Shown here piece after piece: positions 2,326-57,648 of a DNA stretch of 64,000 bases. The stretch comes from an uncultured bacterium (lineage in GTDB: Bacteria; Fermentibacterota; Fermentibacteria; Fermentibacterales; Fermentibacteraceae). Location of the stretch: positions 96,451 to 160,450 of the forward strand of contig CAZMAT010000003.1 in NCBI GenBank assembly GCA_964564435.1. Reading direction: 5' to 3'. Under the pieces are notes generated by a model. That model was not told the DNA's origin. It was given only the letters and a program-made list of their open reading frames with translations, and did no database searches. A program made the position numbers and the translations under genes. Positions within the stretch are counted from its first letter, which is position 1. Each line of letters opens with the position of its first letter.

Positions 2326-3404
2326 CTCAACGGACCTCCGTGTTGTCTGGCGAGCCTTTCGAGCTCCTCCGATATCCTGGCGCGGACCTCGCCAGGGCTC
2401 ACCGTCCCGGGGAGCCTCCGGCCCCCCTCGAACAGGATCACTCCGGCGGGGCTCCCTATTACGGCGAAGTCTGCGTCCCGGGCCTCACCGGGGCCGTTGA
2501 CCTCGCATCCCATCACAGCTACCGTGAACGAACCGCGCATCCCCCTGAGCATCCCGGAAACCTCCTCCGCCAGCCCCGCCACGTCTATCCGCGTTCTGGC
2601 GCAGGTGGGGCAGCTCACCAGCCTCGGGTGGATGCTCCCCAGCCCGAGCGAGGAGAGGATCTCCCAGGCCACGAAGGGCTCGTCCTCGGGAGGGCCGGAC
2701 AGAGAGACCCGGATCGTGTCGCCTATTCCCCTTGCCAGCAGCAGCGCCATGGCCACCGAGCTCCTGACCGCCCCCCCGAGGGAGGGTCCGGCTTCGGTGA
2801 CACCGAGATGGAGCGGCCTGTCGCACTCCCTGGCCGCCCGCAGGTTGGCCTCCACCGTCGTCATCGGGTCGCTCGCCTTGAGCGAGATGACCGTGTCGGT
2901 GAAGCCTGTTTCGTCGAGCATCCGGAGATGGCGCTCGGCAGCGGCCCAGAGCGCGTCCGACCCGGTGCCGAACCTCTCCCTGATATCTCCCGGGATGCTG
3001 CCGGAATTGATGCCGATCCTTATCGGGATGCCTTTCGAGGCAGCCTTCTCGGCCACGGCCCGGACATCCGCGGGCCTGCGGATGTTGCCCGGGTTGATGC
3101 GCAGCTTGGAGATCCCGGCATCGACCGCCGCGATCGCCAGATCGTGCCGGAAGTGGATGTCCGCCACCAGCGGGACGCAGCTCTCGGCGGCTATCGAATG
3201 GAGGGTGGAGGCGGATGCCTCGTCGGGGACCGAGACCCTGACTATCTGGGCTCCGGCCCTCGCCAGCGACCCTATCTGTGCGATGGTGGCACGGGCGTCT
3301 GAAGTGGGCGTGTTCGTCATGGACTGGACGGAAACCGGGGCGCCGCCGCCGATCGCCACTCCACCGACCGATACCGCCTGCGACCTTCTCCTGCGGATCC
3401 TCAT
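2322..3404 (-). CDS. ispG: 4-hydroxy-3-methylbut-2-enyl diphosphate synthase (IspG/GcpE)
   Basis: The Arg-rich first 79 codons of the 439-aa ORF look like over-extension. Conserved IspG begins at [32 protein letters not shown] (ATG at 3404, forming ATGA with the prmC stop). CPTCART Fe-S motif present. Confidence 0.88.
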   Translation of the reverse strand: MRIRRRRSQAVSVGGVAIGGGAPVSVQSMTNTPTSDARATIAQIGSLARAGAQIVRVSVPDEASASTLHSIAAESCVPLVADIHFRHDLAIAAVDAGISKLRINPGNIRRPADVRAVAEKAASKGIPIRIGINSGSIPGDIRERFGTGSDALWAAAERHLRMLDETGFTDTVISLKASDPMTTVEANLRAARECDRPLHLGVTEAGPSLGGAVRSSVAMALLLARGIGDTIRVSLSGPPEDEPFVAWEILSSLGLGSIHPRLVSCPTCARTRIDVAGLAEEVSGMLRGMRGSFTVAVMGCEVNGPGEARDADFAVIGSPAGVILFEGGRRLPGTVSPGEVRARISEELERLARQHGGPLS

Positions 3405-4240
3405 GTCCTCCTCGCGGCAACCCAGCGCGGCCTGCCGGAAAGGTCGGGCCCGTGCCTGACGTCGCTCCATCCCCCCGCTGACTCCAGCACCGCAGCCAGG
3501 ATCGAAGGCTGAGGTCCCGACGCCTCCATCACCAGGGCCCCTCCGGGCCTCAGCAGCCTGACGGCCTCCCCGGAGAATCTCCGTATCAGGGCCATGCCGT
3601 CGGGGCCCCCGTCGAGGGAGGAGGCCGGGTCGTGGATGCACACCTCGGGCTCGAGGGTCGGAATCACTCCGGATGGTATGTATGGGAGATTGGCAGCGAT
3701 GCCGTCAAATCCCCTCCCGAGCGCACCGCCCAGGTCGCACCTCACGAGGGCGGTGTTCCATGCGCCGTGCAGGGCGCGGTTGCGAGCGGCAAGGCCGAGG
3801 GCGGCGGGGGATATGTCGCTCCCGACCACGAGGCATCCCGGGAACTCGAGCGCCAGCGTGACTGCGATAACGCCCGAGCCCGTGCCTGCGTCGAGGAGCC
3901 TGGATGGTTCCGGGTCGAGCATGCCGAGCAGGGCTTCGAGGGTAGACTCTGTTTCCTGCCTCGGCACGAGCGCCTCCGGCCCCGACAGGAATCTGCGTCC
4001 CATGAACCAGGCTTCCCCGGTCAGGTGCTGCAGAGGGATCCTGCCGGCCCTGGCCTCCACCAGGGCGAAGTATTCCCCCTCGCTGCCGGGATCCAGAGAC
4101 ATCCGGGACGACATGTGGAGGGCGTGCCTGGGAAGGCCGAGCACGTGCATGAGGAGGAGCTCAGCATCGATCCCGGGATCGGGGCATCCGGAAGACCCCA
4201 GGGCCCTGGAGGCGGCCGCAAGGGCTTCCCTGACCGTCAC
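3401..4240 (-). CDS. prmC: release factor glutamine N5-methyltransferase PrmC/HemK
   Basis: 279 aa with [14 protein letters not shown] motif and NLPYIP (NPPY-type) motif. Overlaps the prfA stop. Confidence 0.85.
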
Positions 4241-5319
4241 CCTCCCTGCGATCCGCCGGTGGTGCGTTCCGAGAGGAGCCGGTCCTGCTCGGCCGATACC
4301 AGGGCGTCCACGATCCCGTCGAGGTCGCCCGTCATGACCTGCTCGAGGCTGTGCACCGTCAGGTGTATCCTGTGATCGGTGACCCTGGACTGGGGGAAGT
4401 TGTAGGTGCGGATCTTGGCGCTCCTGTCGCCGGAGCCCACCATGGAGCGCCTTGCCGAGGCCCGCTCCGATTCCGCCGCCTCCTGTTTCAGCGCGAGGAG
4501 CCGGGAGGAGAGGACCTTCATGGCCTTGGCCTTGTTCTTGTGCTGGCTCTTCTCGTCCTGGCAGGTGACTACGAGCCCCGTCGGGAGGTGGGTGATCCTC
4601 ACAGCCGAATCCGTCGTGTTCACGCTCTGGCCGCCCGGTCCGGTGGACCTGTAGACATCGATCTTCAGGTCGTCGGGCCTGATGTCGAGCTCGACCTCCT
4701 CGGCCTCCGGGAGGACCGCGACCGTGCAGGCGGAGGTGTGGATCCTGCCCTGGGCCTCCGTTTCGGGCACCCTCTGGACCCTGTGGACGCCGGCTTCGTA
4801 CTTCATTCGGGAATACACGCCCTCGCCCGACACCGAGAAGGAGATCTCCTTGAAGCCGCCCTTCTCGGAGGGCCTGCTGCCGAGGACCTCGATCCTCCAG
4901 CCCCTGCGCGCGGCATAGCCGGAGTACATCCTGAACACGTCGGCGGCGAAGAGGGCAGCCTCCTCGCCTCCCGTGCCTCCGCGTATCTCCACGATGACGT
5001 TCCTGCCCTCGTTCTCGTCCCTCGGGAGGAGCATCCTCTTCAGGGAGTCCTCGAGCGCGGCCCGCTGCTCCCTGACTCCGGGCAGCTCGTCCCTCGCCAT
5101 CTCGACCAGCTCGGGATCGTCGCCGGAAAGGGCCTCCTCCAGCTCCTCCACCAGCTTACCGACCGAGGCGAGCGCCTCCAGCGCGTCCCTTATCCTCGAC
5201 AGGGCTGCACGCTCGGAGGATAGTGCGCGAATGGACGATGAGCTGCGCTGCGTCTCCGGAAGGCACAGGAGGTCGTCTATCTCCGCGATCCTCGCGATGA
5301 TGCCCGGGAGCTCGTTCAT
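4237..5319 (-). CDS. prfA: peptide chain release factor 1
   Basis: 360 aa with the GGQ motif ([25 protein letters not shown]) and typical RF1 domains. Confidence 0.92.
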
Positions 5320-6590: not shown

Positions 6591-7871
6591 TCATTGGGAC
6601 ATGCTCGCCATCGCGTCAAGGAACCTCTTGTTGGACTTGTGCTGGGAGATCTGCTTCTTGAGGAGTTCCATGGCCTCCACGGGATTGAGGTCGACCAGGA
6701 TCTTCCTCATTATCCAGACCTTGCTCAGGGTCTCCTCGTCGAGGAGCAGCTCCTCGCGCCTGGTGCCCGACTTCGTGATGTCGATGGCGGGGAAGACCCT
6801 GCGGTCGGCGAGCCTCCTGTCGAGGACTATCTCGCTGTTGCCGGTTCCCTTGAACTCCTCGAAGATGACCTCGTCCATCCTGCTGCCGGTGTCCACGAGG
6901 GCCGTCCCGACTATCGTCAGGCTACCGCCCTCCTCGGCCTTCCTGGCCGCGCCGAAGAACCTCTTGGGGCGCTGCAGGGCGTTGGAGTCGACACCGCCGG
7001 AGAGGATCTTGCCGGAATGGGGGATCACGGTGTTGTTGGCCCGGGCGAGGCGCGTGATGGAGTCGAGCAGGATCACGACGTCGTGGCCGCTCTCGACCAT
7101 CCTCTTGGCCTTCTCGAGCACTATGTCGGCCACCTGGACGTGGCGCTTGGGGGCTTCGTCGAACGTGGAGCTGATCACCTCGCCCCTGACGTTGCGCTTC
7201 ATGTCCGTGACCTCTTCGGGCCTCTCGTCGATCAGGAGGACGATGAGCACCACCTCGGGGTGGTTTATGGCTATGCTGTTCGCTATGTGCTGGAGGAGTA
7301 TGGTCTTGCCCGCCCGCGGCGGGGAGACTATCAGGGCGCGCTGCCCCTTCCCCAGCGGGGTCAGGAGATCCATGATGCGGCCGCTGAACTCCTCCGAGTC
7401 GTGCTCCAGGATGAAGCGCTCCTTGGGGTAGTAGGGGGTCAGCTCGTCGAAGTTGCGCCGTGTCCTGGCGAGATCGGGGCTCTTCTGGTTGACCGTCTCG
7501 ACCCTGAGGAGGGCGAGGTACTTCTCGCCTTCCTTGGGCTGCCTGACCTGGCCAGATATCGTGTCGCCCGTCAGGAGTCCGAACCGCTTTATCTGAGACG
7601 GGGAGACGTAGATGTCGTTGGTCCCTGGCAGGTAGTTGGATTCGACGGCCCTGAGGAAGCCGTACCCCTCGGGCAGGGTCTCCAGCACTCCCGTCGCGAA
7701 CTCGAGCCCGTTCTTCTCGGTCTGGCTCTCGAGCATCATCTGGATGAGATCTCGCTTCCTGCAACCGGCGATACCCTTGATCTCCATGCTCTTGGCTATG
7801 GCCTGGAGCTCCACCAGCGTCATGCTCTCGAGATCGGAAAGGGAATGACCGTCGAGCGGCTTTTCTACCAT
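6591..7871 (-). CDS. rho: transcription termination factor Rho
   Basis: Full Rho architecture (N-terminal RNA-binding domain, Walker A PPRAGKT, RecA-like core). Start re-picked at [23 protein letters not shown] (ATG at 7871, 426 aa); the track ORF is 51 codons longer. Confidence 0.92.
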
Positions 7872-8029
7872 TGAGTCCCTCAATCGGTTCGGGTTAACGA
7901 GAGATATGGGGGGCGAATGCGCCTGCCCAGCGGCCGTATCCGGGAACCGCGTAATGGAACATCCGTATCTGTCAAGCAGTTTCGGATCGACGGATCGGAA
8001 AGCACTAATAAATTGTTTCAACAAAGAGG

Positions 8030-8610
8030 AGAGTCAAGCCCCTTGCTCCGCGTCCGCGGAGCAAGGGGCTGGGAGCGGCAGCACGCTCATCTCCGCGTCC
8101 GCGGAGATGAGCAGGCCCGGCAGTGGCTTGCCAACCCTCCGATTCTCCGGTTCGGCAAGCCGCGAGAGGGCCGGGGTGTATAGTCCAGTCTCGCCTCTGC
8201 GAGACTGGCACGCGCACTCGCAGTTTCCTGCTTGGAAACTGCTGTAGCGCTACCCGTCGATTTCGGCAGGCTGGAAACTGATTTTCATGTCAGCCGAAAT
8301 CGATGATGCGGGAGCGATCCAGCCTGCTGCTCGATATCCTTGCGTCTGACCCGCCGTGAACGCAGGCCGGGCGCCGGGTTCTCTCGCGGTTCGCCCATCT
8401 AGTCGTGCTGGATGCTGGCGAACCACTGTCGAACCTGCTCATTCCCGCCGACGCGGGAAAGAGCGCCCTGCGCAGGATCCAGCCCTTTCCGCGGGCTGTC
8501 TGAAGATCAAGCCCTTCCTTGCGAGGCTTGCACGCATACCCGCGGTTTCCTGCTGGGAAACCGCTGAAATGCTACCCGCCGATTTCGGCGAAGCCGAAAT
8601 CGGAGTATAC
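8030..8610. repeat. hairpin-rich intergenic repeat array upstream of rho, at least two copies of the ~140-bp structured element family
   Basis: At least 8 perfect or near-perfect stem-loops, including 8039-8068 and 8085-8112 (both with loop cgcgtccgcgg), gcagtttcc-tgcttg-ggaaactgc, and cgatttcggc...gccgaaatcg. Shares the agcggcagcacg, ggcacgcgYactcgcagttt and gctacc motifs with the repeats at 53.9-54.4 kb and 57.1-57.4 kb. Confidence 0.7.
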
Positions 8611-8617
8611 TCCCCCG

Positions 8618-10195
8618 GTGAACAGGCGCAGGTTCTCCCGGATCGCCGTGCTGTCGGCCGCCCTGGCGGCGGCCGCCGCATCCTCCCTGGCTTCCCTGCG
8701 GTACGAACCGGGCCCGTGGTCCTGGGCGGCCTCCGCCGTCTGCGCCGCATCGGCGGCGCTCCTTGCCTCTCGCGGCCACCGGGACGGAAACGGCGCGTCG
8801 ACCCACCGGCAGGCATCCGCCGCCGCCCTCGTCCTCTCCTCCGTGAGGCTGACCGGAGGCTTCGGCGGGCCCCTGACTCCGCTCTACTTCCTGCTCCTCG
8901 CCTGGATGGCGGGGCGTCCCGTCCAGGGGCCCGCACTCGAGGCCGGGATCGCCCTGGGACTCGTCGAGGGGCTGCTCACCGCATCCAGGGGCGGCCTGAT
9001 CACCCCCGGTCTCCTGGGCAGGCTTTCGGCGGCTGCCCTGCCTCTCGTCGCACTTCCGGTGTCGTCGCTCGCGCTGGAATGGATGGCATCGGGAGGCGGG
9101 CGCGCGAAAGGTCCGGGGAGCAGATCCGGGCGGACTGGTCCATGCGGGAATGATCCTGCTCCCGTCTCGCAGGGCTGCCTGGAGCTCGTCAAATCGATCG
9201 CCCAGGCCGGCAGTCTCGGCGGGGCCATACACTCGACCGCAGCCTGGCTGGCAGGCTCCGGGAACGATCTGACCGTCACCGTCGGGCTCCTGTCCGGCGA
9301 CAGCGGCAGCCTCGACGTTTACGAATCGCTGGGCCCCCTGGCGCAGGGACGAGTCGGCATGAACTTCGACCTGGAGGGCTCGGTGGCGGGGTGGACCATC
9401 AGGAGCGGCAACTCGATATCGCGCTGCGGCCTCGGGAGCGGCGGGCGGGCCGTCACCACGCTCTCCCGGTCCGATCCATCGACCGTGCGCTGCGGGAGCT
9501 GCTCGGCAGCACCCGTGGTGATCTCCGGCAAGAGCGTCGGAGTCCTGCTCGTCGAATCCCCCTCGGAGGAGGGCACCGGAACCGGAGTCGAGGGGACGCT
9601 CGACCTGGCGGCCGGGCTGCTCGGCCTGGCGATAGAGAAGATCCTCCTCCGCGAGCAGAAGAAGGATCTCCAGAACAGGGACGGTCTGACGGGGCTTCCG
9701 CATCCCGTGGACTTCATGGATTTCGTGAGGCGGACATCGAGGGACGTCTACCGGTTCGGCAGGAGCGTATCCCTGTTCGTGGTGGAGATCGATTCCCTCG
9801 AGGAGGTGAACGCCGCGCACGGTTTGAGGGGAGGGAACAGGCTCCTGTCCGCCTGCGGCGAGAGCCTCGGAGGGATTGCCGGCTCCGAGGCGGCTATCAC
9901 CAGGCTCTCGGCCTCGAAATTCGCGATCTGCATCCCCGGCATGGACCAGGCCGCGGCGGAGGCGTTCGCCGAGAGCGTCGTGAGGAGCTTCGACGGCATG
10001 AAGGTGAAGCTGGAGTCCGGCGAGATATCGCCGAGAGTCGTCGTGGGGGGGGCGGTGACGAGGAGCGACAGGAGGATCGAGTCGCTATGTGCCGAGGCTT
10101 CGCGGGCCATGGTCTCCGCGAGGGCGGTCTCCTCGAGGTTCCAGGTCGCGCTCCTGCTCGCATCCGGACAGAACCACGGGGCCGTCGATCCTTGA
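8618..10195 (+). CDS. membrane-anchored GAF/GGDEF-domain protein with degenerate GGDEF
   Basis: About 5 N-terminal TM helices, a central GAF-like region, and a C-terminal GGDEF fold (GLTGLPHPVDFMDF...LFVVEIDSLEEV...RLSASKFAICIPG). The GG[DE]EF signature is replaced by SASKF. The 5' end of the track ORF overlaps a repeat element, so the start was moved to GTG 8618; this is uncertain. Confidence 0.65.
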   Translation: MNRRRFSRIAVLSAALAAAAASSLASLRYEPGPWSWAASAVCAASAALLASRGHRDGNGASTHRQASAAALVLSSVRLTGGFGGPLTPLYFLLLAWMAGRPVQGPALEAGIALGLVEGLLTASRGGLITPGLLGRLSAAALPLVALPVSSLALEWMASGGGRAKGPGSRSGRTGPCGNDPAPVSQGCLELVKSIAQAGSLGGAIHSTAAWLAGSGNDLTVTVGLLSGDSGSLDVYESLGPLAQGRVGMNFDLEGSVAGWTIRSGNSISRCGLGSGGRAVTTLSRSDPSTVRCGSCSAAPVVISGKSVGVLLVESPSEEGTGTGVEGTLDLAAGLLGLAIEKILLREQKKDLQNRDGLTGLPHPVDFMDFVRRTSRDVYRFGRSVSLFVVEIDSLEEVNAAHGLRGGNRLLSACGESLGGIAGSEAAITRLSASKFAICIPGMDQAAAEAFAESVVRSFDGMKVKLESGEISPRVVVGGAVTRSDRRIESLCAEASRAMVSARAVSSRFQVALLLASGQNHGAVDP

Positions 10196-10209
10196 GGGTC
10201 GCGGCAAGG

Positions 10210-10590
10210 GTGCTCCTGTTCGCTCTGGCAGCGGTGATCTGGATCCTGAGCTCGGATCCCGCCCCGGATTACATCCCGCCCCTCTTCCCATATCAGGACA
10301 AGCTCATGCATTTCGTGGAGTTCGCCTCGCTGGGATTCGCCATCTCGCTGAACCGCGACCTGTTCCGGAGATCGGACGGCGCCGCCCTCGCCTCCGGCGT
10401 TCTGTGGGCGGGACTCGACGAGATCCACCAGGCCTACGTCCCGGGAAGGGACTGCTCGACCGGCGATTTCCTGGCCGACTGCGCCGGGCTGGCCGCGGGT
10501 TTCGCGGCCGGGGCTCTGAGGTCGGCCAGGGCTGGCCGCAGGCGCAGGCTTGGCCTTATGTTCCGCGAACGGAGTGAAAGCGGCTCTTGA
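10210..10590 (+). CDS. VanZ-like family membrane protein
   Basis: LFPYQDKLMHFVEFA...GLDEIHQAYVPGRDCSTGDFLADCAG matches the VanZ family. It is the 3' part of track ORF 9391..10590, whose 5' portion is antisense to the GGDEF gene. Start uncertain (GTG 10210 or TTG 10192). Confidence 0.6.
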   Translation: MLLFALAAVIWILSSDPAPDYIPPLFPYQDKLMHFVEFASLGFAISLNRDLFRRSDGAALASGVLWAGLDEIHQAYVPGRDCSTGDFLADCAGLAAGFAAGALRSARAGRRRRLGLMFRERSESGS

Positions 10591-10698
10591 CACCGCTTCA
10601 CCGGCAGGATACGATCTTCAGTCGGACAGGGGTCGGTCCTCAAGTTGTTCCCAGGGGTCCATTCAGCCATTCTGACCAGTCGAGAGGAGGTCCCGCGT

Positions 10699-10965
10699 AT
10701 GCCTAGAGCCAGGATGATCTGGTTCTGCCTGGCAGTTCTCAGCGCCGCCCTGCTTCTCTCCGCCTGCGGTCCCAGCGAGGCACAGATCCGTGCCAGGGAC
10801 GAGGCCAGGAGTGCGGCTCTTGCGGCCGAAGCCAGGGCAGCCAGCCTTCAGGCCGAGTATGCAGATCTGACCGAGTCCATCCCCCAGAAGGAGGCTCAGG
10901 TCCAGTCACTTCAGCAGGAGCTCGCCGAGCTCCAGGCCGAGTATCAGGCACTCGGCGGCCGCTAG
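10699..10965 (+). CDS. small coiled-coil lipoprotein
   Basis: MPRARMIWFCLAVLSAALLLSACG signal and lipobox, then heptad-like AQIRARDEARSAALAAEARAASLQAEYADL... GAGAGGAGG RBS precedes ATG 10699. Confidence 0.5.
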   Translation: MPRARMIWFCLAVLSAALLLSACGPSEAQIRARDEARSAALAAEARAASLQAEYADLTESIPQKEAQVQSLQQELAELQAEYQALGGR

Positions 10966-10980
10966 GAGGGGGGGAACGCA

Positions 10981-11658
10981 ATGAATCGCAACTTCGCAAT
11001 GATCCTTGCAGCGACTCTGTTCCTCGCATCCGGCGCCGTTGCGGGAACCTGGTCCGCTGAAGAGCTGTCCCAGTACACGCACGATGAGATCGACGCCATG
11101 GGCAACGACAACCTCCCTCTCCAGATCGCCTACTGGGAGTGGGTCAAGGCCGAGGCCGACGATGTGATAGCCGAGTGGGAGCCCCAGGTTCTCCCTCTGC
11201 GCGCCCAGGCTCAGGATCTGGACAACCAGATCGCCAGCCTCCAGAACCAGATCAACCAGCTCAGGGCCGACATCGAGAGGCTCCGCAACTCCGGCGTGAC
11301 CCACAACATCGTCGAGGGCGAGTGCCTCTGGACCATCGCGTCCTACCACTACTACTTCAACGACGGCACCAAGTGGCCGCAGATCTACGAGCGCAACCGC
11401 GAGACGATAAGCGACCCCGACCTGATCTACGCCGGTCACACGCTCATCGTCCCCGTGCCCATGGTCAGCAGCTACACGGTCGTCGATGGTGACTACCTCG
11501 GCAAGATCGCCGGCTACGGCGTCGTCTACGGCGACAGGGGCATGTGGCCCCAGCTCTATGAAGCAAACCGCGGTGTGATCAGCGATCCCAACCTGATCTA
11601 TCCCGGCCAGGTTCTCACCGTCCCCAGGACCGGCTCGAGGCCTGGTACCACCCGTTAG
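10981..11658 (+). CDS. secreted LysM-domain protein (two LysM repeats)
   Basis: Signal peptide, a coiled-coil stretch, then two LysM-like modules (HNIVEGECLWTIAS...DLIYAGHTLIVP and YTVVDGDYLGKIAG...NLIYPGQVLTVP). GGAGGGGGG RBS. Confidence 0.8.
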   Translation: MNRNFAMILAATLFLASGAVAGTWSAEELSQYTHDEIDAMGNDNLPLQIAYWEWVKAEADDVIAEWEPQVLPLRAQAQDLDNQIASLQNQINQLRADIERLRNSGVTHNIVEGECLWTIASYHYYFNDGTKWPQIYERNRETISDPDLIYAGHTLIVPVPMVSSYTVVDGDYLGKIAGYGVVYGDRGMWPQLYEANRGVISDPNLIYPGQVLTVPRTGSRPGTTR

Positions 11659-45528: not shown

Positions 45529-45550
45529 TCCGGTGAGTCGGGTGAGTCCG

Positions 45551-45744
45551 GTGTCAGAGGAAAAAATGTAAAGTAATCAGGCTTTTGGAATAGAAGACCG
45601 AAATGTCTTGAGAAATAACGTATTAAAGCACTATATGATCGATGCAACCCATTGCCTGTCTTTTGTTTTCAGGATTCTTGGATTGCATCTTCTTGAGGGT
45701 CCGATTACACGATTCTGATTACTTTACATTTTTTCCTCTGACAC
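45551..45744. mobile_element. MITE-like element: perfect 30-bp terminal inverted repeats flanking a 134-bp AT-rich core
   Basis: gtgtcagaggaaaaaatgtaaagtaatcag (45551-45580) is the exact reverse complement of 45715-45744. The core is ~38% GC against a ~68% GC background, has no ORF, and lies 9 nt from the 3' end of tRNA-Ser. Confidence 0.55.
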
Positions 45745-45753
45745 CGACCGATG

Positions 45754-45844
45754 TGGCGGAGGGGGTGGGATTCGAACCCACGGACCCCACTAGGGAGTCA
45801 ACGGTTTTCGAGACCGCCCCGATCGACCTCTCCGGCACCCCTCC
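45754..45844 (-). tRNA. tRNA-Ser (anticodon CGA)
   Basis: 91-nt reverse-strand cloverleaf: acceptor GGAGGGG/CCCCTCC, anticodon loop CTCGAAA, long variable arm, T-loop TTCGAAT, encoded CCA. Closely resembles E. coli tRNA-Ser. Confidence 0.85.
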
Positions 45845-53034: not shown

Positions 53035-53658
53035 CTATTCGAAAATGTACTTGATGGAGGCAAAGGTCTCGTTCTCGAGATCGTTCGTCCCTGCGAGTAT
53101 CCAGTGGGGGACAGTCGACTCGAGCCCGCCGGTCGGCTGGCCGTCCGGGCTGCAGAAGACCGCGCGTCCGTCGGCACCGTTCCAGTTGTACACATAGACC
53201 GACTGACTGTCCGGGGTCGCGGTCCACTCTATGTCTATCAGCAGATTGTTGCTCCCGTTGTAGAAGAAGGGGGTGTCCAGGTCAGTGCTGAACCACTGGT
53301 CCGGGCCGAGACCCGACAGCGTGTACGTAGACCTGCTGAACACAAGCGTCTTCGACGACGGGACGTAGTTGTTCTCGAAGTTCGTGCCAAGAGCATCGAG
53401 GGTCGTGTAGCCCATGTAGATCTTGAAGTTGTTGTAGGAGCCGTGGTCTTCGCCGAACGGCGCACGCTTCCACATGAGATCCTGGATCGTGATCGCCGTG
53501 CCTATCTCGCTGTCGAGCACTACCACCTGGTAGCGCATTCCGGCAGGATATCAACCACCGCAGAAAGGCGTACTGCCGAGCCCTACGTCGCTGCCTATCT
53601 CGACGTCGGCCATCGCAGCCGTCGAAAGCAGCAGTGCCGCTGATATCAGTCTGTTCAT
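53035..53658 (-). CDS. secreted protein interrupted by in-frame TGA (signal peptide-CGG-TGA-mature domain): candidate selenoprotein or pseudogene
   Basis: ATG 53658 has a strong GGAAGGAGGAAGG RBS. Reads MNRLISAALLLSTAAMADVEIGSDVGLGSTPFCGG, then TGA at 53551-53553, then the same frame continues YPAGMRYQVVVLDSEIG... to the stop at 53035. An 8-bp stem with AGGU loop lies 14 nt downstream of the UGA. Local GC (~57%) is lower than background. Confidence 0.4.
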
Positions 53659-53720
53659 CCTTCCTCCTTCCCTGTCTGGAACCCAAATATACCTCCGCGG
53701 CGTCCCCGGGCAAAAGCGGC

Positions 53721-53750
53721 TTGACGCTGCGTGCCGCCCGCCCATATAAA
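53721..53750 (+). promoter_or_regulatory. putative sigma70-type promoter of tRNA-Asp
   Basis: TTGACG (53721-53726), 18-nt spacer, TATAAA (53745-53750), 17 nt upstream of the tRNA 5' end. Confidence 0.4.
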
Positions 53751-53767: not shown

Positions 53768-53845
53768 GGTCCGGTAGTTCAATTTGGTTAGAGCACCGCC
53801 CTGTCACGGCGGAAGTTGCGGGTTCGAGTCCCGTCCGGACCGCCA
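53768..53845 (+). tRNA. tRNA-Asp (anticodon GTC)
   Basis: 78 nt: acceptor GGTCCGG/CCGGACC, anticodon stem CCGCC/GGCGG with loop CTGTCAC, T-arm GCGGG-TTCGAGT-CCCGT, discriminator G, encoded CCA. Confidence 0.9.
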
Positions 53846-53862
53846 CTTCCCGCGCCCGCGGG

Positions 53863-54420
53863 AAGTGGCAGCGTCGCCAGCACTGTTTGCGAAGCAAACG
53901 TGCGAGAGACCATCAATCCAGCCTGTCACTCCTGTTCGATTTCGTGTGTCTGACTACTGCTTGCGCCGCAGCATTGCTCGCACTTCTTTCGAGGCTCTTC
54001 AGCTCGCACTGCGGGTCCTTCCGGGGGGCGTTGCCTCCCGTCCCCCTCATTTCGCGAAGCGAAATGAGAAACAAGCGGCAGCACGGTTCGCGAAGCGAAC
54101 CTGCGAGAGCGATCCAGCTGATCTGGTGGCACGCGTACTCGCAGTTTTCTGCGAAAACTGCTGTTACGCTACCTATCGATTCCGCCCTGCGAAATCGATG
54201 AAATTAGAAGGAAGCGGCAGCACGGTTCGCGAAGCGAACCTGCGAGAGCGATCCAGCTGATCTGGTGGCACGCGTACTCGCAGTTTGCTGCGAAAACTGC
54301 TGTTACGCTACCTATCGATTCCGCCCCGCGAAATCGATGAAATAAGAAGGAAGCGGCAGCACGGTTCGCGAAGCGAACCTGCGAAAGCGATCAAGCCTGT
54401 CCTCGAGCCCATGCGGTTCT
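53863..54420. repeat. 139-bp tandem repeat (about 2.3 near-identical copies plus one degenerate copy), each unit carrying three small hairpins
   Basis: Units begin at 54073, 54212 and 54351 (period 139) with only 3-4 mismatches. Internal hairpins are ggttcgc-gaa-gcgaacc, gcagtttt-ctgcg-aaaactgc and tcgatt...aatcga. A degenerate copy at 53863-54072 directly follows tRNA-Asp. Confidence 0.8.
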
Positions 54421-54429
54421 TCACCGTTA

Positions 54430-57120
54430 AGTGGGGCACAGGTCCTGTTCAGCAGCACCGTGCTCTCACCCTGAGTCTGTAGTTCTCGAAGCCCTTGAAG
54501 CCGTTGATGCTCCTGGAGATCTGATTTATCAGCTTGTTTCTGCTTCCGCAAAACAAGCTGGCTGCTATCGGCTCATCACTCTGTGTATCCACGCTGGGTA
54601 AGCTGATAATGTACGTCTACAGAAAATCTGCCCGCTTGTAGTCAACTACACTGTGAAGTCTTGATTGTCGACCCATCAGAGAATCCATTGCGCTTCTACA
54701 AGCAACAGGTTCAAGATCATTTCTCTGTAAGCAACGACGAGTTCTCCATCGATCCTGTGTTTCGAATCTGACGGACGCGGAAGCGTAAAAGGGCTCTAAG
54801 TCAATGTAGCAATCGACATTGGGCAACTACTTATATGCGGTATGATGCCGTGCTGGTCAGTATTCGACAGGCCATACCCATGCGGCTTCTTCGGACATTT
54901 GGTTGACATGGTTGCTCCCGCATACTAGTCATCGATCACTACTCACACTGAGTAACAACAGTTGCGGCATCTTCAGGGGGGTTGACGATGGGCATCGCCT
55001 TGGTTGCGCTTATCGTTACCGGAACACTGAACCTCACCAGTTATAACGTATGGAAACCGGCTTCGTGGAACAGGGCAGACGCTCGGGATCTGGTGATATC
55101 ATCTGTAACGGGTAATCCGGTTGTTGCAGGAGGCAGATGAAACATAGTCGGAGGCTCCGGTGGAGCCGATGAAGGAGAGTTCCGGGTCTGGGAATTTGAT
55201 CTTGCATCGCTTGGAACAACACCTCCTGCTGGTAGTGAGCCCTATCTATGGACATACGCGTATGCTGGAAGCACTGACTACTCTTCTCAGAAAGCACATG
55301 CACTTACTGCGTACGGATCCACGGAAGAAAACGAGAGCTACCTCGTAGCCGGCCATGACCACTACTGGCTCGGTCCGGTGCCGCACCTGCTCATATCGGA
55401 CTTGTATGTAGCAGGTGGATCTTCTCCCATTGGATCAGACCATCAATTCGAACGACCTGGTTCTGTCATGCCCGAGGCGAATGACATAGTCTACATTGAT
55501 GACATCAGTTCATTCGTCACCGGCTCTACCGGTGCAGGAATGGCTACCTGCGGAACCTATCGCCCAGGCGAAGGGTATCCCAAGCAGCCTTTCCTTCAGA
55601 TATCGGACATCGATGACTATTCGACGGTCTTCCCTGGTCTTTCGTCATCATCCTGGGGAAGAAGCCTCGGAGCAGTAGTATACGACTCGGAAAACAGCAT
55701 CATCGTTGCAGCCGGCATGTCTACGGGTTCGCCTTCAACGAATAGAATAGATAGAATAGTGATCTGCGGCTATAACCGATTCATAGGAGCCGTCGAGAAC
55801 TCCTTCTCGCTTGGCAGCTGCTTCTTAAGTGAAAACGAAGTCGAAGCATACAGACCGCCTCTTGTGGATCTCGGCGGAGGATTCTATCTGTATTTGACCA
55901 GCATACAAGGGCCGGTGGACATCTCGGGTTACTCATGGCACGGAGTTATCGCTACATTGTGGAAGTACAGCAATAATGGCGGAGTCGCGTCGATCAACTG
56001 CGTATCAAGTGACATCTGCAGGATACAGAACATCGCCGGCTACAGCAAGTTCTCCGACTTCATACCATTTTCGATAGGGCTTACCGAGAGCTTTGGAAGT
56101 TCCGGCGGTGACGCTGTCGTGCTGATTAACTCTAGATACACAGATGCACGGGAAGAGATCGACCAGTCCCGCCTTGTTGTTGGTACCGTGAATGTTGTTA
56201 TGGGATCTTCGCCAACAGTTGATATTGCAGACGGAGTCAATGATTTCCAAACGATACGGATACTACCAGAGCAGGAGTTCCAATCGGGTTGCGCGTACCA
56301 GGCCATGCTGGGGAACGAATTTGTCTTTACCGATTGCAGCAGCAGTGAGGCTTTTTCTGGAACCGGAGTAGGTGTTTTCTACAAGAGCCTGACATGTCAT
56401 GATTACAAGAAGATCTGGCTCTTCCAGATATCGCCGTCGAACGCAGAGGCGTCGATTGTACCGATGACGGAGCGAGAAGACCAGACCTATCCAGCGTCAG
56501 AAGTGAGCTTCCATCTGACCTCTAATCCGGTAGTGGATGGCGTTGTCGAAATTGCCACGAATGGGACGATTTCGACAGGTACAGAGGCTTTGTTGTTTGA
56601 TGTTTCGGGGAGGATGATCGGTCGAACCAGCCCCGATGTCTCTGGCACTTTCAGAATCGCAAGCGTTCATGGATGCCCTCTGCCAACTGGTGTCTATACT
56701 GCCGTGGTTACCCAGAACGGGGAGGCGTGCTTCGTTAGTACATGCGCTGTCATTGACTAAATGACATAGTGCTGCGACCAGCTTTGTGGGCTGCGCCTGC
56801 GCAGCCCACAACCTTATTGCTAACTAGTGTGGACGACGCATTACAAAGAGACAAGGTTCAATATAAGCTAGATTGTGATATTCAACCGCTTCATAGTACA
56901 ATGGGTGAGTTTCCGGTGTTGGAGTCATTTTCTCGACAGCAGAGTTCTTCCCTTATGCCTTATCTCAGTCCAGATGCTCTAGCACTCAACCTTTGCTATC
57001 CCAGCTGCCAGCGGCCTTATCGATTCTCCTAACTAGAACGCTTTGATGCTCCAAGCCTGACCGTGCTGAACCATTTACAGAAACCCCAGCAGACTAACAT
57101 TCCAACAGGTGATCCATATC
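54430..57120. mobile_element. low-GC (~50%) islet adjacent to tRNA-Asp, bracketed by copies of the hairpin-repeat family, no recognisable mobility genes
   Basis: Sharp compositional drop against the ~68% GC background. Located 3' of a tRNA gene, with repeat copies on both borders (53863-54420 and 57125-57370). A single large ORF lies inside. Confidence 0.6.
54988..56760 (+). CDS. islet-encoded Ser/Gly-rich secreted protein with T9SS-type C-terminal sorting domain, containing an in-frame TGA at 55138
   Basis: ATG 54988 has an AGGGGGG RBS. Reads MGIALVALIVTGTLNL... (hydrophobic N-terminus) for 50 codons, TGA, then the same frame continues 540 codons. The C-terminus (NPVVDGVVEIATNG...ALLFDVSGRMIG...GVYTAVVTQNGEACFV) matches the Por/T9SS CTD pattern. 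A stem-loop with GGU-containing loop lies 12 nt after the UGA. The track reports only the 55378..56760 part. Confidence 0.5.
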
Positions 57121-57124
57121 AAGT

Positions 57125-57370
57125 GTGATCCTTGCATCAACGACCCTTCACTCACGCATACGTGGATTGATGATGTGGCCTGCACGGTTCTCACGCGGAG
57201 AACGTGCGAAAGCGAACAGGTTGCCCAGATACTCAAGCCGGAATACCCGTGCACTCGTGCCTGACGGAAACCTTGATCCGCCCGAGGTGGATCAAGGCAC
57301 GCCCTGTCGCGGTTTCCCTTCGGGAAACCACTGTCGGGCTACCCATCGATTCCGCTTCGCGAAATCGATG
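57125..57370. repeat. right-border copy of the hairpin-repeat family
   Basis: cgcggtttccc-ttcg-ggaaaccac tgtcgggctacccatcgattccgcttcgcgaaatcgatg parallels the 139-bp unit (gcagttttctgcgaaaactgctgttacgctacctatcgattccgccctgcgaaatcgatg). The upstream part has gcacggttc...gcgaaagcgaac similarity. Confidence 0.55.
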
Positions 57371-57381
57371 TGACGATCCGG

Positions 57382-57648
57382 CTACTCCAGCATGACCAGC
57401 CGGTGGGCCGAAGCTCCTGACTGCGTCGATATCCTCACGAGATAGACCCCCGGAGCGAAGCCGCCGATCCCGGTCTCGTTGACCCCGGCCGCCGCCGGGA
57501 TCGCAGGTGCTTCCTGCACGATCCTCCCCGAGACGTCGAAGACCGACACGTCCACGGCCGCCGCGGAACCGAGGACGAATCTCACGGTAGCCAGGCCCGC
57601 CGCCGGATTGGGGAAGACGCACGACAAGGATATGATCCCGTGGTGCAT
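57382..57648 (-). CDS. orphan 88-aa ORF consisting only of a T9SS-type C-terminal sorting domain (likely gene remnant)
   Basis: MHHGIISLSCVFPNPAAGLATVRFVLGSAAAVDVSVFDVSGRIVQEAP...GVYLVRISTQSGASAHRLVMLE shows the CTD pattern with no catalytic or cargo domain. It abuts the islet border repeat. Confidence 0.45.
   Translation of the reverse strand: MHHGIISLSCVFPNPAAGLATVRFVLGSAAAVDVSVFDVSGRIVQEAPAIPAAAGVNETGIGGFAPGVYLVRISTQSGASAHRLVMLE

Follow-up and report, generated by a model that had tools for sequence, protein, structure and literature searches.

Extragenic imperfect palindromes whose hairpins are kept by compensatory changes are found as bacterial interspersed mosaic elements (BIMEs) and repetitive extragenic palindromes (REPs) in enterobacteria, as REP doublets forming hairpins (REPINs) in Pseudomonas and as BOX elements in Streptococcus pneumoniae. 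Inverted doublets in tandem are the architecture of BIMEs and REPINs, and REPs carry a GTAG head. Structured palindromic elements also bound the cassettes of integrons, and tRNA-proximal genomic islands carry accessory cargo of atypical composition. In bacterial selenoprotein genes, such as fdhF, an in-frame UGA is followed by a hairpin, the selenocysteine insertion sequence (SECIS); an exported product sorted by the type IX secretion system (T9SS) is unusual for selenoproteins. Here we describe a locus that recalls each of these systems, a low-GC block downstream of a tRNA-Asp gene in a 64,000-nucleotide stretch of DNA (the window) from an uncultured digester bacterium, which is assigned by its flanking proteins to Fermentibacterota, with Ca. 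Fermentibacter daniensis, Ca. Aegiribacteria and Fermentibacteria metagenome-assembled genomes (MAGs) as the closest named relatives. We propose, with a probability of about one half, that the block is a single-gene accessory islet that was horizontally acquired or exchanged and that sits in a pre-existing, gene-free repeat array downstream of tRNA-Asp. Its gene probably encodes an orphan selenoprotein with a T9SS-type C-terminal domain (CTD). The features of the locus are as follows.

53768-53845, plus strand: tRNA-Asp (anticodon GTC), with encoded CCA (ARAGORN; Rfam RF00005, 66 bits)
53842-53869, plus strand: perfect 13-bp hairpin overlapping the tRNA-Asp 3' end (inverted-repeat search; also present in the sister-species contigs L025 and L033)
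53870-54427, plus strand: array of structured modular repeats (Tandem Repeats Finder (TRF), repeat search, blastn and covariance model R1)
54428-57140, no strand: low-GC islet, 50.5% GC (composition; borders approximate, within tens of bases)
54988-56760, plus strand: islet gene of 590 codons, the 51st an in-frame UGA, with a TAA stop (translation; alignment with the homologue on metagenome contig L034)
55138-55167, plus strand: in-frame UGA (55138-55140), 12-nt spacer and hairpin (55153-55167), together a candidate bacterial SECIS (bSECIS)
56784-56811, plus strand: terminator-like hairpin, 24 nt 3' of the stop codon of the islet gene
about 57139-57172: degenerate B-type head (sequence inspection)
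57178-57370, plus strand: full repeat unit (A-type element, extra hairpin and B-type element) closing the islet (R1 at 57296-57370, 93.6 bits; blastn)

The islet is set apart by its composition. Its GC content is 50.5% at 54428-57140, compared with 66.3% in the remainder of the window, and sliding values run from 0.47 to 0.54 between about 54400 and about 57200 and from 0.65 to 0.73 on either side. These values bear out the low-GC block of about 2.7 kb described by the original prediction, a model's note made from the letters of the window, which took the block for a foreign islet inserted next to tRNA-Asp(GTC) and its repeats; that tRNA gene was confirmed by ARAGORN and Rfam at 53768-53845, and a repeat after it by TRF. 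The claim of foreign composition extends to codon usage and stop codons, given that GC at third codon positions (GC3) is 0.54 in the islet gene and 0.78-0.95 in host open reading frames (ORFs) and that the islet gene ends in TAA, while the 56 host-like ORFs end in TAG (30) or TGA (26) only. The non-coding flanks of the islet are as GC-poor as its gene. On the left, the resemblance of the last repeat unit to the sister-species unit fades at about 54425, and the islet starts about 580 bp past tRNA-Asp. As the original prediction had reported, no integrase, transposase or att duplication was found: integrase and transposase domains were absent, by Pfam scan, from the islet ORFs, the neighbouring genes and 30 further ORFs of the window, which are housekeeping genes (e.g., glnA, ispG, prfA, rho, recO and tRNA synthetases), and the 3' end of tRNA-Asp (25 nt) occurs once in the window with up to 3 mismatches allowed. 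A search of the islet borders for a target-site duplication or terminal inverted repeat returned only chance-level short matches, the best of which are imperfect repeats of 11 and 20 nt, such as often arise by chance.

The islet and its right flank were also found by exact-protein look-ups in independent assemblies from at least 11 sequencing runs that are 99.9-100% identical to the window, which rules out an assembly chimera. The contigs carrying the islet all break off within the tandem array (54355-54381), as short-read graphs would be expected to do, and the repeat family accounts for the breaking of short-read assemblies of these organisms at the tRNA-Asp locus. In four samples (L018-L021; window 54355-56795) the contig with the islet gene stops at 56790-56795, within the terminator-like hairpin; these stops may have to do with heterogeneity among strains further downstream or with an effect on assembly of the palindrome's perfect 13-bp arms.

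The single gene of the islet had been read by the original prediction as an uninterrupted ORF at 54988-56760, a reading that overlooked an in-frame TGA at 55138-55140, which tells more about the gene than any other feature. The longest uninterrupted ORF in this interval is 55378-56760, and gene callers split the gene into products of 50 and 430 aa. Read across the UGA, the protein would run ...VVAGGR-U-NIVGGSGGADEGEFR. It starts with a hydrophobic segment, after which come the conserved motif PVVAGGR-U-xxxxGSGGA and a beta-rich body, and it ends in a domain resembling the T9SS type-A kind. The hydrophobic N-terminus (MGIALVALIVTGTLNL...) lies only upstream of the UGA and is without a charged n-region. 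A word-indexed search of 5.8 billion clusters returned the self-match only, and an exhaustive HMMER search of 1.84 billion representative proteins found a single homologue, P0122 on contig L034 (E 1.8e-26, 31% identity), with which the full frames align at 33% identity over 559 aa. The islet carries one gene, as had been claimed, and this gene is an orphan with one remote homologue; no relatives were found among viral contigs, phages and plasmids. Nor was any catalytic domain recognised, in keeping with the original prediction, since Pfam and NCBIfam contain no domain that matches the islet protein beyond a sub-threshold sorting domain. Structure prediction without an alignment gave a mean confidence (pLDDT) of 31.6 and was unusable.

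The in-frame UGA is a candidate selenocysteine (Sec) site. It occupies the same aligned position in the window gene (...GNPVVAGGR*NIVGGSGGADEGEFRVWEFD), in the L034 gene (...GEPVVAGGR*TTITGSGGAYREDGAYRVWHFD) and in a copy of the latter on contig L047, and the block around it is the best-conserved part of the protein, in which third codon positions match at 8 of 11 identical residues, compared with 76 of 175 overall. Because the position of the UGA is conserved and the frames remain open for about 525-540 codons, a nonsense mutation shared by dead genes is excluded. A hairpin, GGCUCC-GGY-GGAGCC, follows 12 nt 3' of the UGA in the window gene (loop GGU) and the L034 gene and is kept in L047. The loops are GGU or GGC, the UGA-to-loop spacing is 18 nt and the stem energy is -9.1 kcal/mol in the window and -10.7 kcal/mol in L034 and L047, and such a hairpin follows 2.7% of the codon positions of the window gene and 1.3% of those of the L034 gene as background. 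The published constraints on bSECIS elements (PMC13188914, section 5 and Fig. 2) hold at all of the six UGA sites examined. Like SECIS-containing selenoprotein genes (e.g., fdhF), the islet gene has its UGA in the most conserved motif, a G-G-U/C apical loop 18 nt from the UGA and a hairpin energy below -7.5 kcal/mol, and a neighbouring gene has a classical CxxU motif; unlike them, it belongs to an orphan family with no Cys homologues, no recognisable redox fold and a short stem of 6-7 bp. An alternative code in which TGA is a sense codon is ruled out by the 26 of 56 host-like ORFs that end in TGA and by the single, position-conserved TGA of the islet gene.

That neighbouring gene lies on the other side of tRNA-Asp.

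53035-53745, minus strand: left-flank gene with a conserved in-frame UGA at 53551-53553 and a hairpin at 53517-53536

Its product begins with a signal peptide followed by ...PFCGG-UGA, a C-G-G/S-U (CxxU) motif, and an identical 8-bp hairpin (GCGCUACC-AGGU-GGUAGUGC) lies 11-14 nt 3' of the UGA, past which the frame stays open. UGA and hairpin are conserved in the window, in L025 (2845-3594) and in L022 (16232-16852), with amino acid identities of 96% and 71% in the flanks of the other species. The gene conforms to the bSECIS constraints with a stem energy of -12.1 kcal/mol, gene callers split it in two, and no Pfam or NCBIfam model matches it. This second candidate is likely to be an unannotated selenoprotein of an unassigned family, and the conservation of the CxxU motif and hairpin in three genomes suggests that the lineage decodes UGA as Sec.

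Several observations weigh against a Sec residue in the islet protein. The Rfam SECIS families do not match its hairpin, whose stem of 6-7 bp is short, and no redox-partner Cys is nearby. No homologue with Cys at the Sec position was found; the searched databases contain only two distinct family members, both with UGA, and the Sec reading is drawn from two diverged homologues and one near-identical copy. No selA, selB, selD or tRNA-Sec gene was found within the 64-kb window. In some samples, moreover, an additional nonsense mutation after ...GGGFYLY splits the gene into products of 142 and 281 aa (P0243 and P0244, variants of 55468-56760, on Logan contigs), which means that the gene is dispensable at least in those samples. 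Against these points stand the conserved position of the UGA and the hairpin behind it, and we consider the islet gene to be probably intact rather than a pseudogene. Its product would then be a Sec-containing, beta-rich protein with an N-terminal export signal and a type-A sorting domain of the T9SS, predicted to be exported to the cell surface. A literature search found no paper containing both 'Fermentibacteria' and 'selenocysteine', and 'seleno' is absent from the Hyd24-12 genome paper.

The T9SS-type C-terminal sorting domain that the original prediction assigned to the protein is borne out by the homologue and falls short of the cutoffs in the islet protein itself. With TIGR04183 (cutoff 23), the C-terminus of the L034 homologue alone scores 27.1 bits (22.5 at full length), whereas the islet protein scores 16.3 bits as a whole and 20.6 bits for its last 96 aa; with PF18962 (cutoff 27) it scores 14.4 bits. 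Like T9SS cargo with type-A CTDs (TIGR04183/PF18962), the islet protein ends in some 75 aa that resemble a beta-sandwich and show the usual pattern ...NP...FDVSGR...GVY..., and its lineage encodes many CTD proteins; unlike such cargo, it scores below both curated cutoffs and has an export signal only if the UGA is read through. These scores support the view that the proteins of this family end in a T9SS type-A sorting domain.

The homologous gene shows how such a cassette can be exchanged. In L034 its reading frame (9521-11251), which contains the in-frame TGA, forms a low-GC block of 44% GC, compared with 58-64% in host genes, between a Se/S-carrier-like gene and a polysaccharide-biosynthesis cluster, and L047 has the same arrangement. 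The flanks of L034 and L047 are 70-93% identical per 200-nt window, while 9388-11587 is 98-100% identical and the gene itself differs at 8 positions in 1731 nt. The identical tract reaches from the final codons of the gene upstream to a point within the gene downstream. Because it runs into both neighbours, it points to a recent interspecies exchange by recombination through the flanking genes, for which no cassette-specific machinery is required, and it is a clear-cut case of a gene-specific sweep between species. Neither the repeat family described below (R1) nor a tRNA (ARAGORN) was found at the L034/L047 cassette, and the window islet and the L034 cassette have no terminal motif in common and no shared sequence outside the 5' part of the gene. 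Directly upstream of the cassette in both contigs (6786-9395) lie two Aminotran_5 genes of the cysteine desulfurase/selenocysteine lyase type and a weak match to Se_S_carrier (PF11823), a possible link of the cassette to selenium metabolism. A FlgD_ig gene with small upstream ORFs on contig L040 was considered as a further analogue and rejected, one frame of 3157-4990 (minus strand) being full of stops and the region not low in GC.

The repeats around the islet belong to a dispersed structured family. The original prediction described a 560-bp tandem array of a 139-bp unit after tRNA-Asp; the unit length stands (139 nt by TRF, 54061-54396, 2.4 copies, 95% identity), but only 336 bp are truly tandem, and the preceding 200 bp or so consist of one diverged A-type element (about 53875-53920) and a non-repeat spacer shared with the sister species (to 54043). 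The units lie at 54061-54199 and 54200-54338, with a partial unit from 54339, and each consists of an A-type element in reverse orientation followed by a B-type element. With R1, a covariance model of the B-type module, matches in this array are found on the plus strand at 54128-54200 and 54267-54339 and on the minus strand at 54044-54115, 54174-54254 and 54313-54393. As R1 matches the opposite strand over every A-type module (31-42 bits), in alternation with the plus-strand matches (83-94 bits), the unit is an inverted doublet, repeated in tandem to form the arrays. The repeat by which the islet was said to be closed (57125-57370) is likewise a unit of the same family, the full unit being confined to 57178-57370 and preceded by the degenerate B-type head. 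The family is not restricted to the tRNA-Asp locus and also occurs between ordinary genes in relatives and in a second place in the window.

8030-8610, plus strand: another cluster of this repeat family, located in the 730-bp intergenic region that separates rho (minus strand) from a GGDEF gene (plus strand) (blastn, R1; genes by Pfam)

In this cluster R1 matches at 8207-8305 and 8529-8605 (plus strand) and at 8086-8176 (minus strand); the same intergenic region (7880-8610) also has long GC-rich hairpins, for example at 8038-8070 and 8085-8112. Altogether the 64 kb hold three clusters with five strong B-type copies (core pattern; zero expected by chance), and the strong B-type matches all lie on the plus strand, as do tRNA-Asp and the islet gene. 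In an alignment of nine distinct B-type modules, which form an outer helix and two hairpins, one of them inner, 93% of cells are paired and compensatory double changes are seen at 10 of 22 pairs, compared with 4.3 +/- 1.3 in shuffles (0 of 500 reach this level) and 0-2 in slid controls. The helices, which vary in a compensatory way, are separated by single-stranded linkers that are conserved, and folding is better in the arrays than in shuffled sequence (z-scores of -5.2 and -3.8).

All the repeat clusters are intergenic. Outside the window, the core pattern was found at two loci of MAG RA.bin127 (Ca. Fermentibacteria), in four metagenome contigs and at the start of contig L035; a first genome-collection scan with a strict pattern gave no match, and a broader pattern matched only MAG RA.bin127 (GTDB representative set). 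The repeats lie 3' of tRNA-Asp in the sister species (L025, L033 and L046), past a Fic-like gene in the space between convergent genes (L032), ahead of a lipoprotein gene (L035) and between the gene of a sorting-domain protein and low-GC small genes (L045), and their units are 75-97% identical between species. On L045 (60-65% GC), two tandem B-type modules (2560-2900) lie about 600 bp from a stretch of 46-49% GC with two small genes (3300-4200); a protein clustering with the product of the 734-aa gene of this contig is labelled Zixibacteria in NCBI. The contig thus provides a second instance, after the islet, of low-GC DNA next to the repeats. More distant relatives, sampled over 17-20 kb, gave no R1 match, and neither did the loci on L034, L047 and L048. 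Elsewhere in the window, an AT-rich inverted repeat of 43 nt, unrelated to the tRNA-Asp repeat family (45549-45591 and 45704-45746, 88% complementary, arms 112 nt apart), ends 8 nt before tRNA-Ser(CGA) (45754-45844).

Like BIMEs and REPs, REPINs (as defined in PMC3337134 and PMC3116915) and BOX elements, the modules are inverted, have conserved linkers and form tandem clusters at several loci, and an invariant GCTAC (GTAGC on the other strand) beside the hairpin recalls the GTAG head of REPs. We know of no REP or BIME family from Fermentibacterota, although no targeted search for one was made. Unlike the modules of those elements, which measure 20-40 nt, the modules here measure about 70 nt, with two hairpins and an outer helix, and from copy to copy their hairpins diverge strongly in sequence, in contrast to the conserved linkers. 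A gene for the Y1 transposase RAYT was not seen among the ORFs scanned in the 64 kb. In the Hyd24-12 genome paper, CRISPR repeats are the only repeats mentioned, and Rfam contains no family matching the repeats, the tRNA being the sole match. The repeats are a dispersed extragenic family that is supported by covariation and resembles BIMEs and REPINs, a well-supported and apparently undescribed structured element in Fermentibacterota.

Comparison with related genomes places the islet at a break in synteny. The left flank is 87% identical to that of the sister species over 3.1 kb, and the two share tRNA-Asp, the 13-bp hairpin and the first 200 bp of the array, which in the sister species is at least 830 nt long and has different hairpin sequences. 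As tRNA-Asp is followed by an array in the sister species as well, the array probably predates the islet. The right-flank block, in the order glucosaminidase, a gene of 162/203 aa, Fur, ZnuABC, a 75-aa gene and FTHFS, is mostly kept in L035 (85% aa identity), L048 (80%) and Ca. Fermentibacter daniensis (70%). Upstream of the glucosaminidase, gene content varies: a sulfatase gene lies directly upstream in L035 and L048, and beyond it L035 has three more genes of normal GC and then a repeat array at the start of the contig. The head of this array shares a stretch of 66 nt, with one mismatch, with the tRNA-Asp array of the sister species, for which reason L035 may represent the far end of that array. 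In the window the sulfatase block is absent, and in its place are found the islet, one repeat unit and a short ORF.

57382-57648, minus strand: 88-aa ORF with a T9SS sorting domain alone (PF18962 E 3.3e-9; TIGR04183 45.7 bits)

This ORF, which has normal GC, abuts the repeat unit and is called as a gene in all assemblies, is without a signal peptide, passenger domain or upstream coding sequence, and is probably the 3' stump of a T9SS cargo gene truncated by rearrangement at the locus. The missing sulfatase block and the truncated ORF next to the repeat unit place the islet at a lineage-specific rearrangement point. Three points weigh against its horizontal acquisition into an older array. An empty site was not recovered, all the sister-species contigs breaking inside the array, and, as there is no before/after pair, we infer the insertion from composition and differing gene content; the direction and mechanism of acquisition are inferred as well. 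The low GC could stem from long residence as a non-recombining accessory gene and not from recent import. Finally, the islet is bracketed by members of the repeat family, which could serve as recombination substrates.

How the block is best explained depends on what the gene, the repeats and the borders are taken to be. The islet gene is unlikely to be a dead pseudogene with a nonsense TGA, or two genes, one for a 50-aa peptide and one for a reinitiating protein. The gene callers' products of 50 and 430 aa, a Shine-Dalgarno-like AGGAGG before the TGA, the further nonsense mutation in some strains and the use of TGA as a regular stop codon in the host genome agree with such a reading, but the TGA aligns exactly with that of a homologue sharing 31-33% protein identity, protein similarity is seen on either side of it, and both homologues stay open in frame for a further 525-540 codons or so. 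Reinitiation, in addition, finds no in-frame ATG, GTG or TTG within 55141-55377, and a protein lacking the N-terminal 50 aa would have a sorting domain and no export signal. As for the repeats, it is possible, if on the unlikely side, that they encode, or belong to, a structured non-coding RNA, such as a trailer of tRNA-Asp, rather than REP-like elements acting as DNA. They could be RNA to judge by the conserved linkers between compensatory helices, the common strand of the strong B-type matches, tRNA-Asp and the islet gene, and the folding z-scores of the arrays; the want of an Rfam match, their inconsistent positions relative to genes (upstream, downstream and between convergent genes) and the inverted-doublet, tandem and multi-locus layout typical of BIME/REPIN DNA repeats argue the other way.

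With regard to origin, the original prediction held that the flanking repeats mediate the insertion or retention of the islet in place of an integrase, making it a repeat-mediated mobile cassette. That the structured repeats are recombination sites of such an integrase-independent cassette system, or, in a weaker form, portable homology arms, now appears rather improbable. The islet does lie between family members (a partial unit ending at about 54427 and the full unit at 57178-57370), the related array of L035 edges a block with gene content unlike that of this genome, the L045 modules lie close to low-GC small genes, and the identity of 75-97% between units of different species could, in principle, be enough for recombination. 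However, the family fills ordinary intergenic regions without variable cargo (rho/GGDEF and the Fic-like convergent pair), the array of the sister species makes it probable that the array predates the islet, and the homologous cassette has neither such repeats nor a tRNA; no target-site duplication or terminal inverted repeat was found, and the two cassettes are without a common end motif. Integron cassettes are comparable in that a single gene is bounded by structured, sequence-variable palindromic elements. The islet differs from them in having no IntI and no attI, in that its gene apparently has its own promoter region and a terminator-like hairpin, and in that the repeats occur elsewhere without cassettes; unlike attC sites, the repeats are multi-hairpin doublets without R''/R' core sites, and the lone GTTRRRY match, GTTAAGT at 54426, is a chance match that has no partner at the right border. 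Very improbable, in our judgement, is a remnant of a classical tRNA-targeting genomic island or prophage whose integrase and att sites have since been deleted. Like tRNA-proximal islands, the islet is atypical in composition, has accessory cargo and lies downstream of a tRNA gene at a place where gene content varies among relatives, and the locus has been rearranged, with a sorting-domain-only ORF and the sulfatase block lost; unlike them, it has single-gene cargo, starts about 580 bp past the tRNA, beyond an array common to the sister species, and comes with no integrase or integrase fragment, no duplicated tRNA 3' end and no phage, plasmid or viral relative of its gene, and the L034/L047 cassette is not beside any tRNA. 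It is also doubtful that the gene is not foreign at all and is a long-resident, lineage-specific surface-protein gene that drifted to low GC under relaxed selection. Both homologues lie about 16-18 GC points below their hosts (50.5% against 66%; 44% against 58-64% in L034), and the searched protein space contains no low-GC donor lineage with a homologue, as such a history would have it; the equally GC-poor non-coding flanks of the islet, the absence of the gene from the recovered sister-lineage contigs and of any closer homologue from the protein searches, and the recent exchange of the L034/L047 cassette between diverged genomes speak for import or exchange instead. For the accessory islet that we propose, plain recombination through flanking homology, as in L034/L047, would suffice rather than a new mobility mechanism, and the repeats would be at most a non-essential landing zone with homology patches, not a dedicated site of cassette recombination. 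Because these findings need no new mobility mechanism, the original claim of a repeat-mediated cassette is downgraded to this weaker role, in which the repeats may be a permissive landing zone or homology patches.

A broader and at present unlikely extension is that low-GC, recombinase-free, single-gene cassettes of about 2-3 kb encoding a T9SS-sorted selenoprotein sweep between species, landing in Fermentibacterota in the new repeat arrays as a portable homology or recombination scaffold, or that the arrays are a new functional RNA co-transcribed with tRNA-Asp. Worth following are the candidate Sec site in an orphan protein of the T9SS-cargo type, the second candidate selenoprotein adjacent to it and the structured repeat family. 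If the UGA of the islet gene is read as selenocysteine, the gene would define a new selenoprotein family without Cys relatives and with a predicted T9SS surface destination, and selenoprotein biology would be extended to the cell exterior of an uncultured digester phylum.

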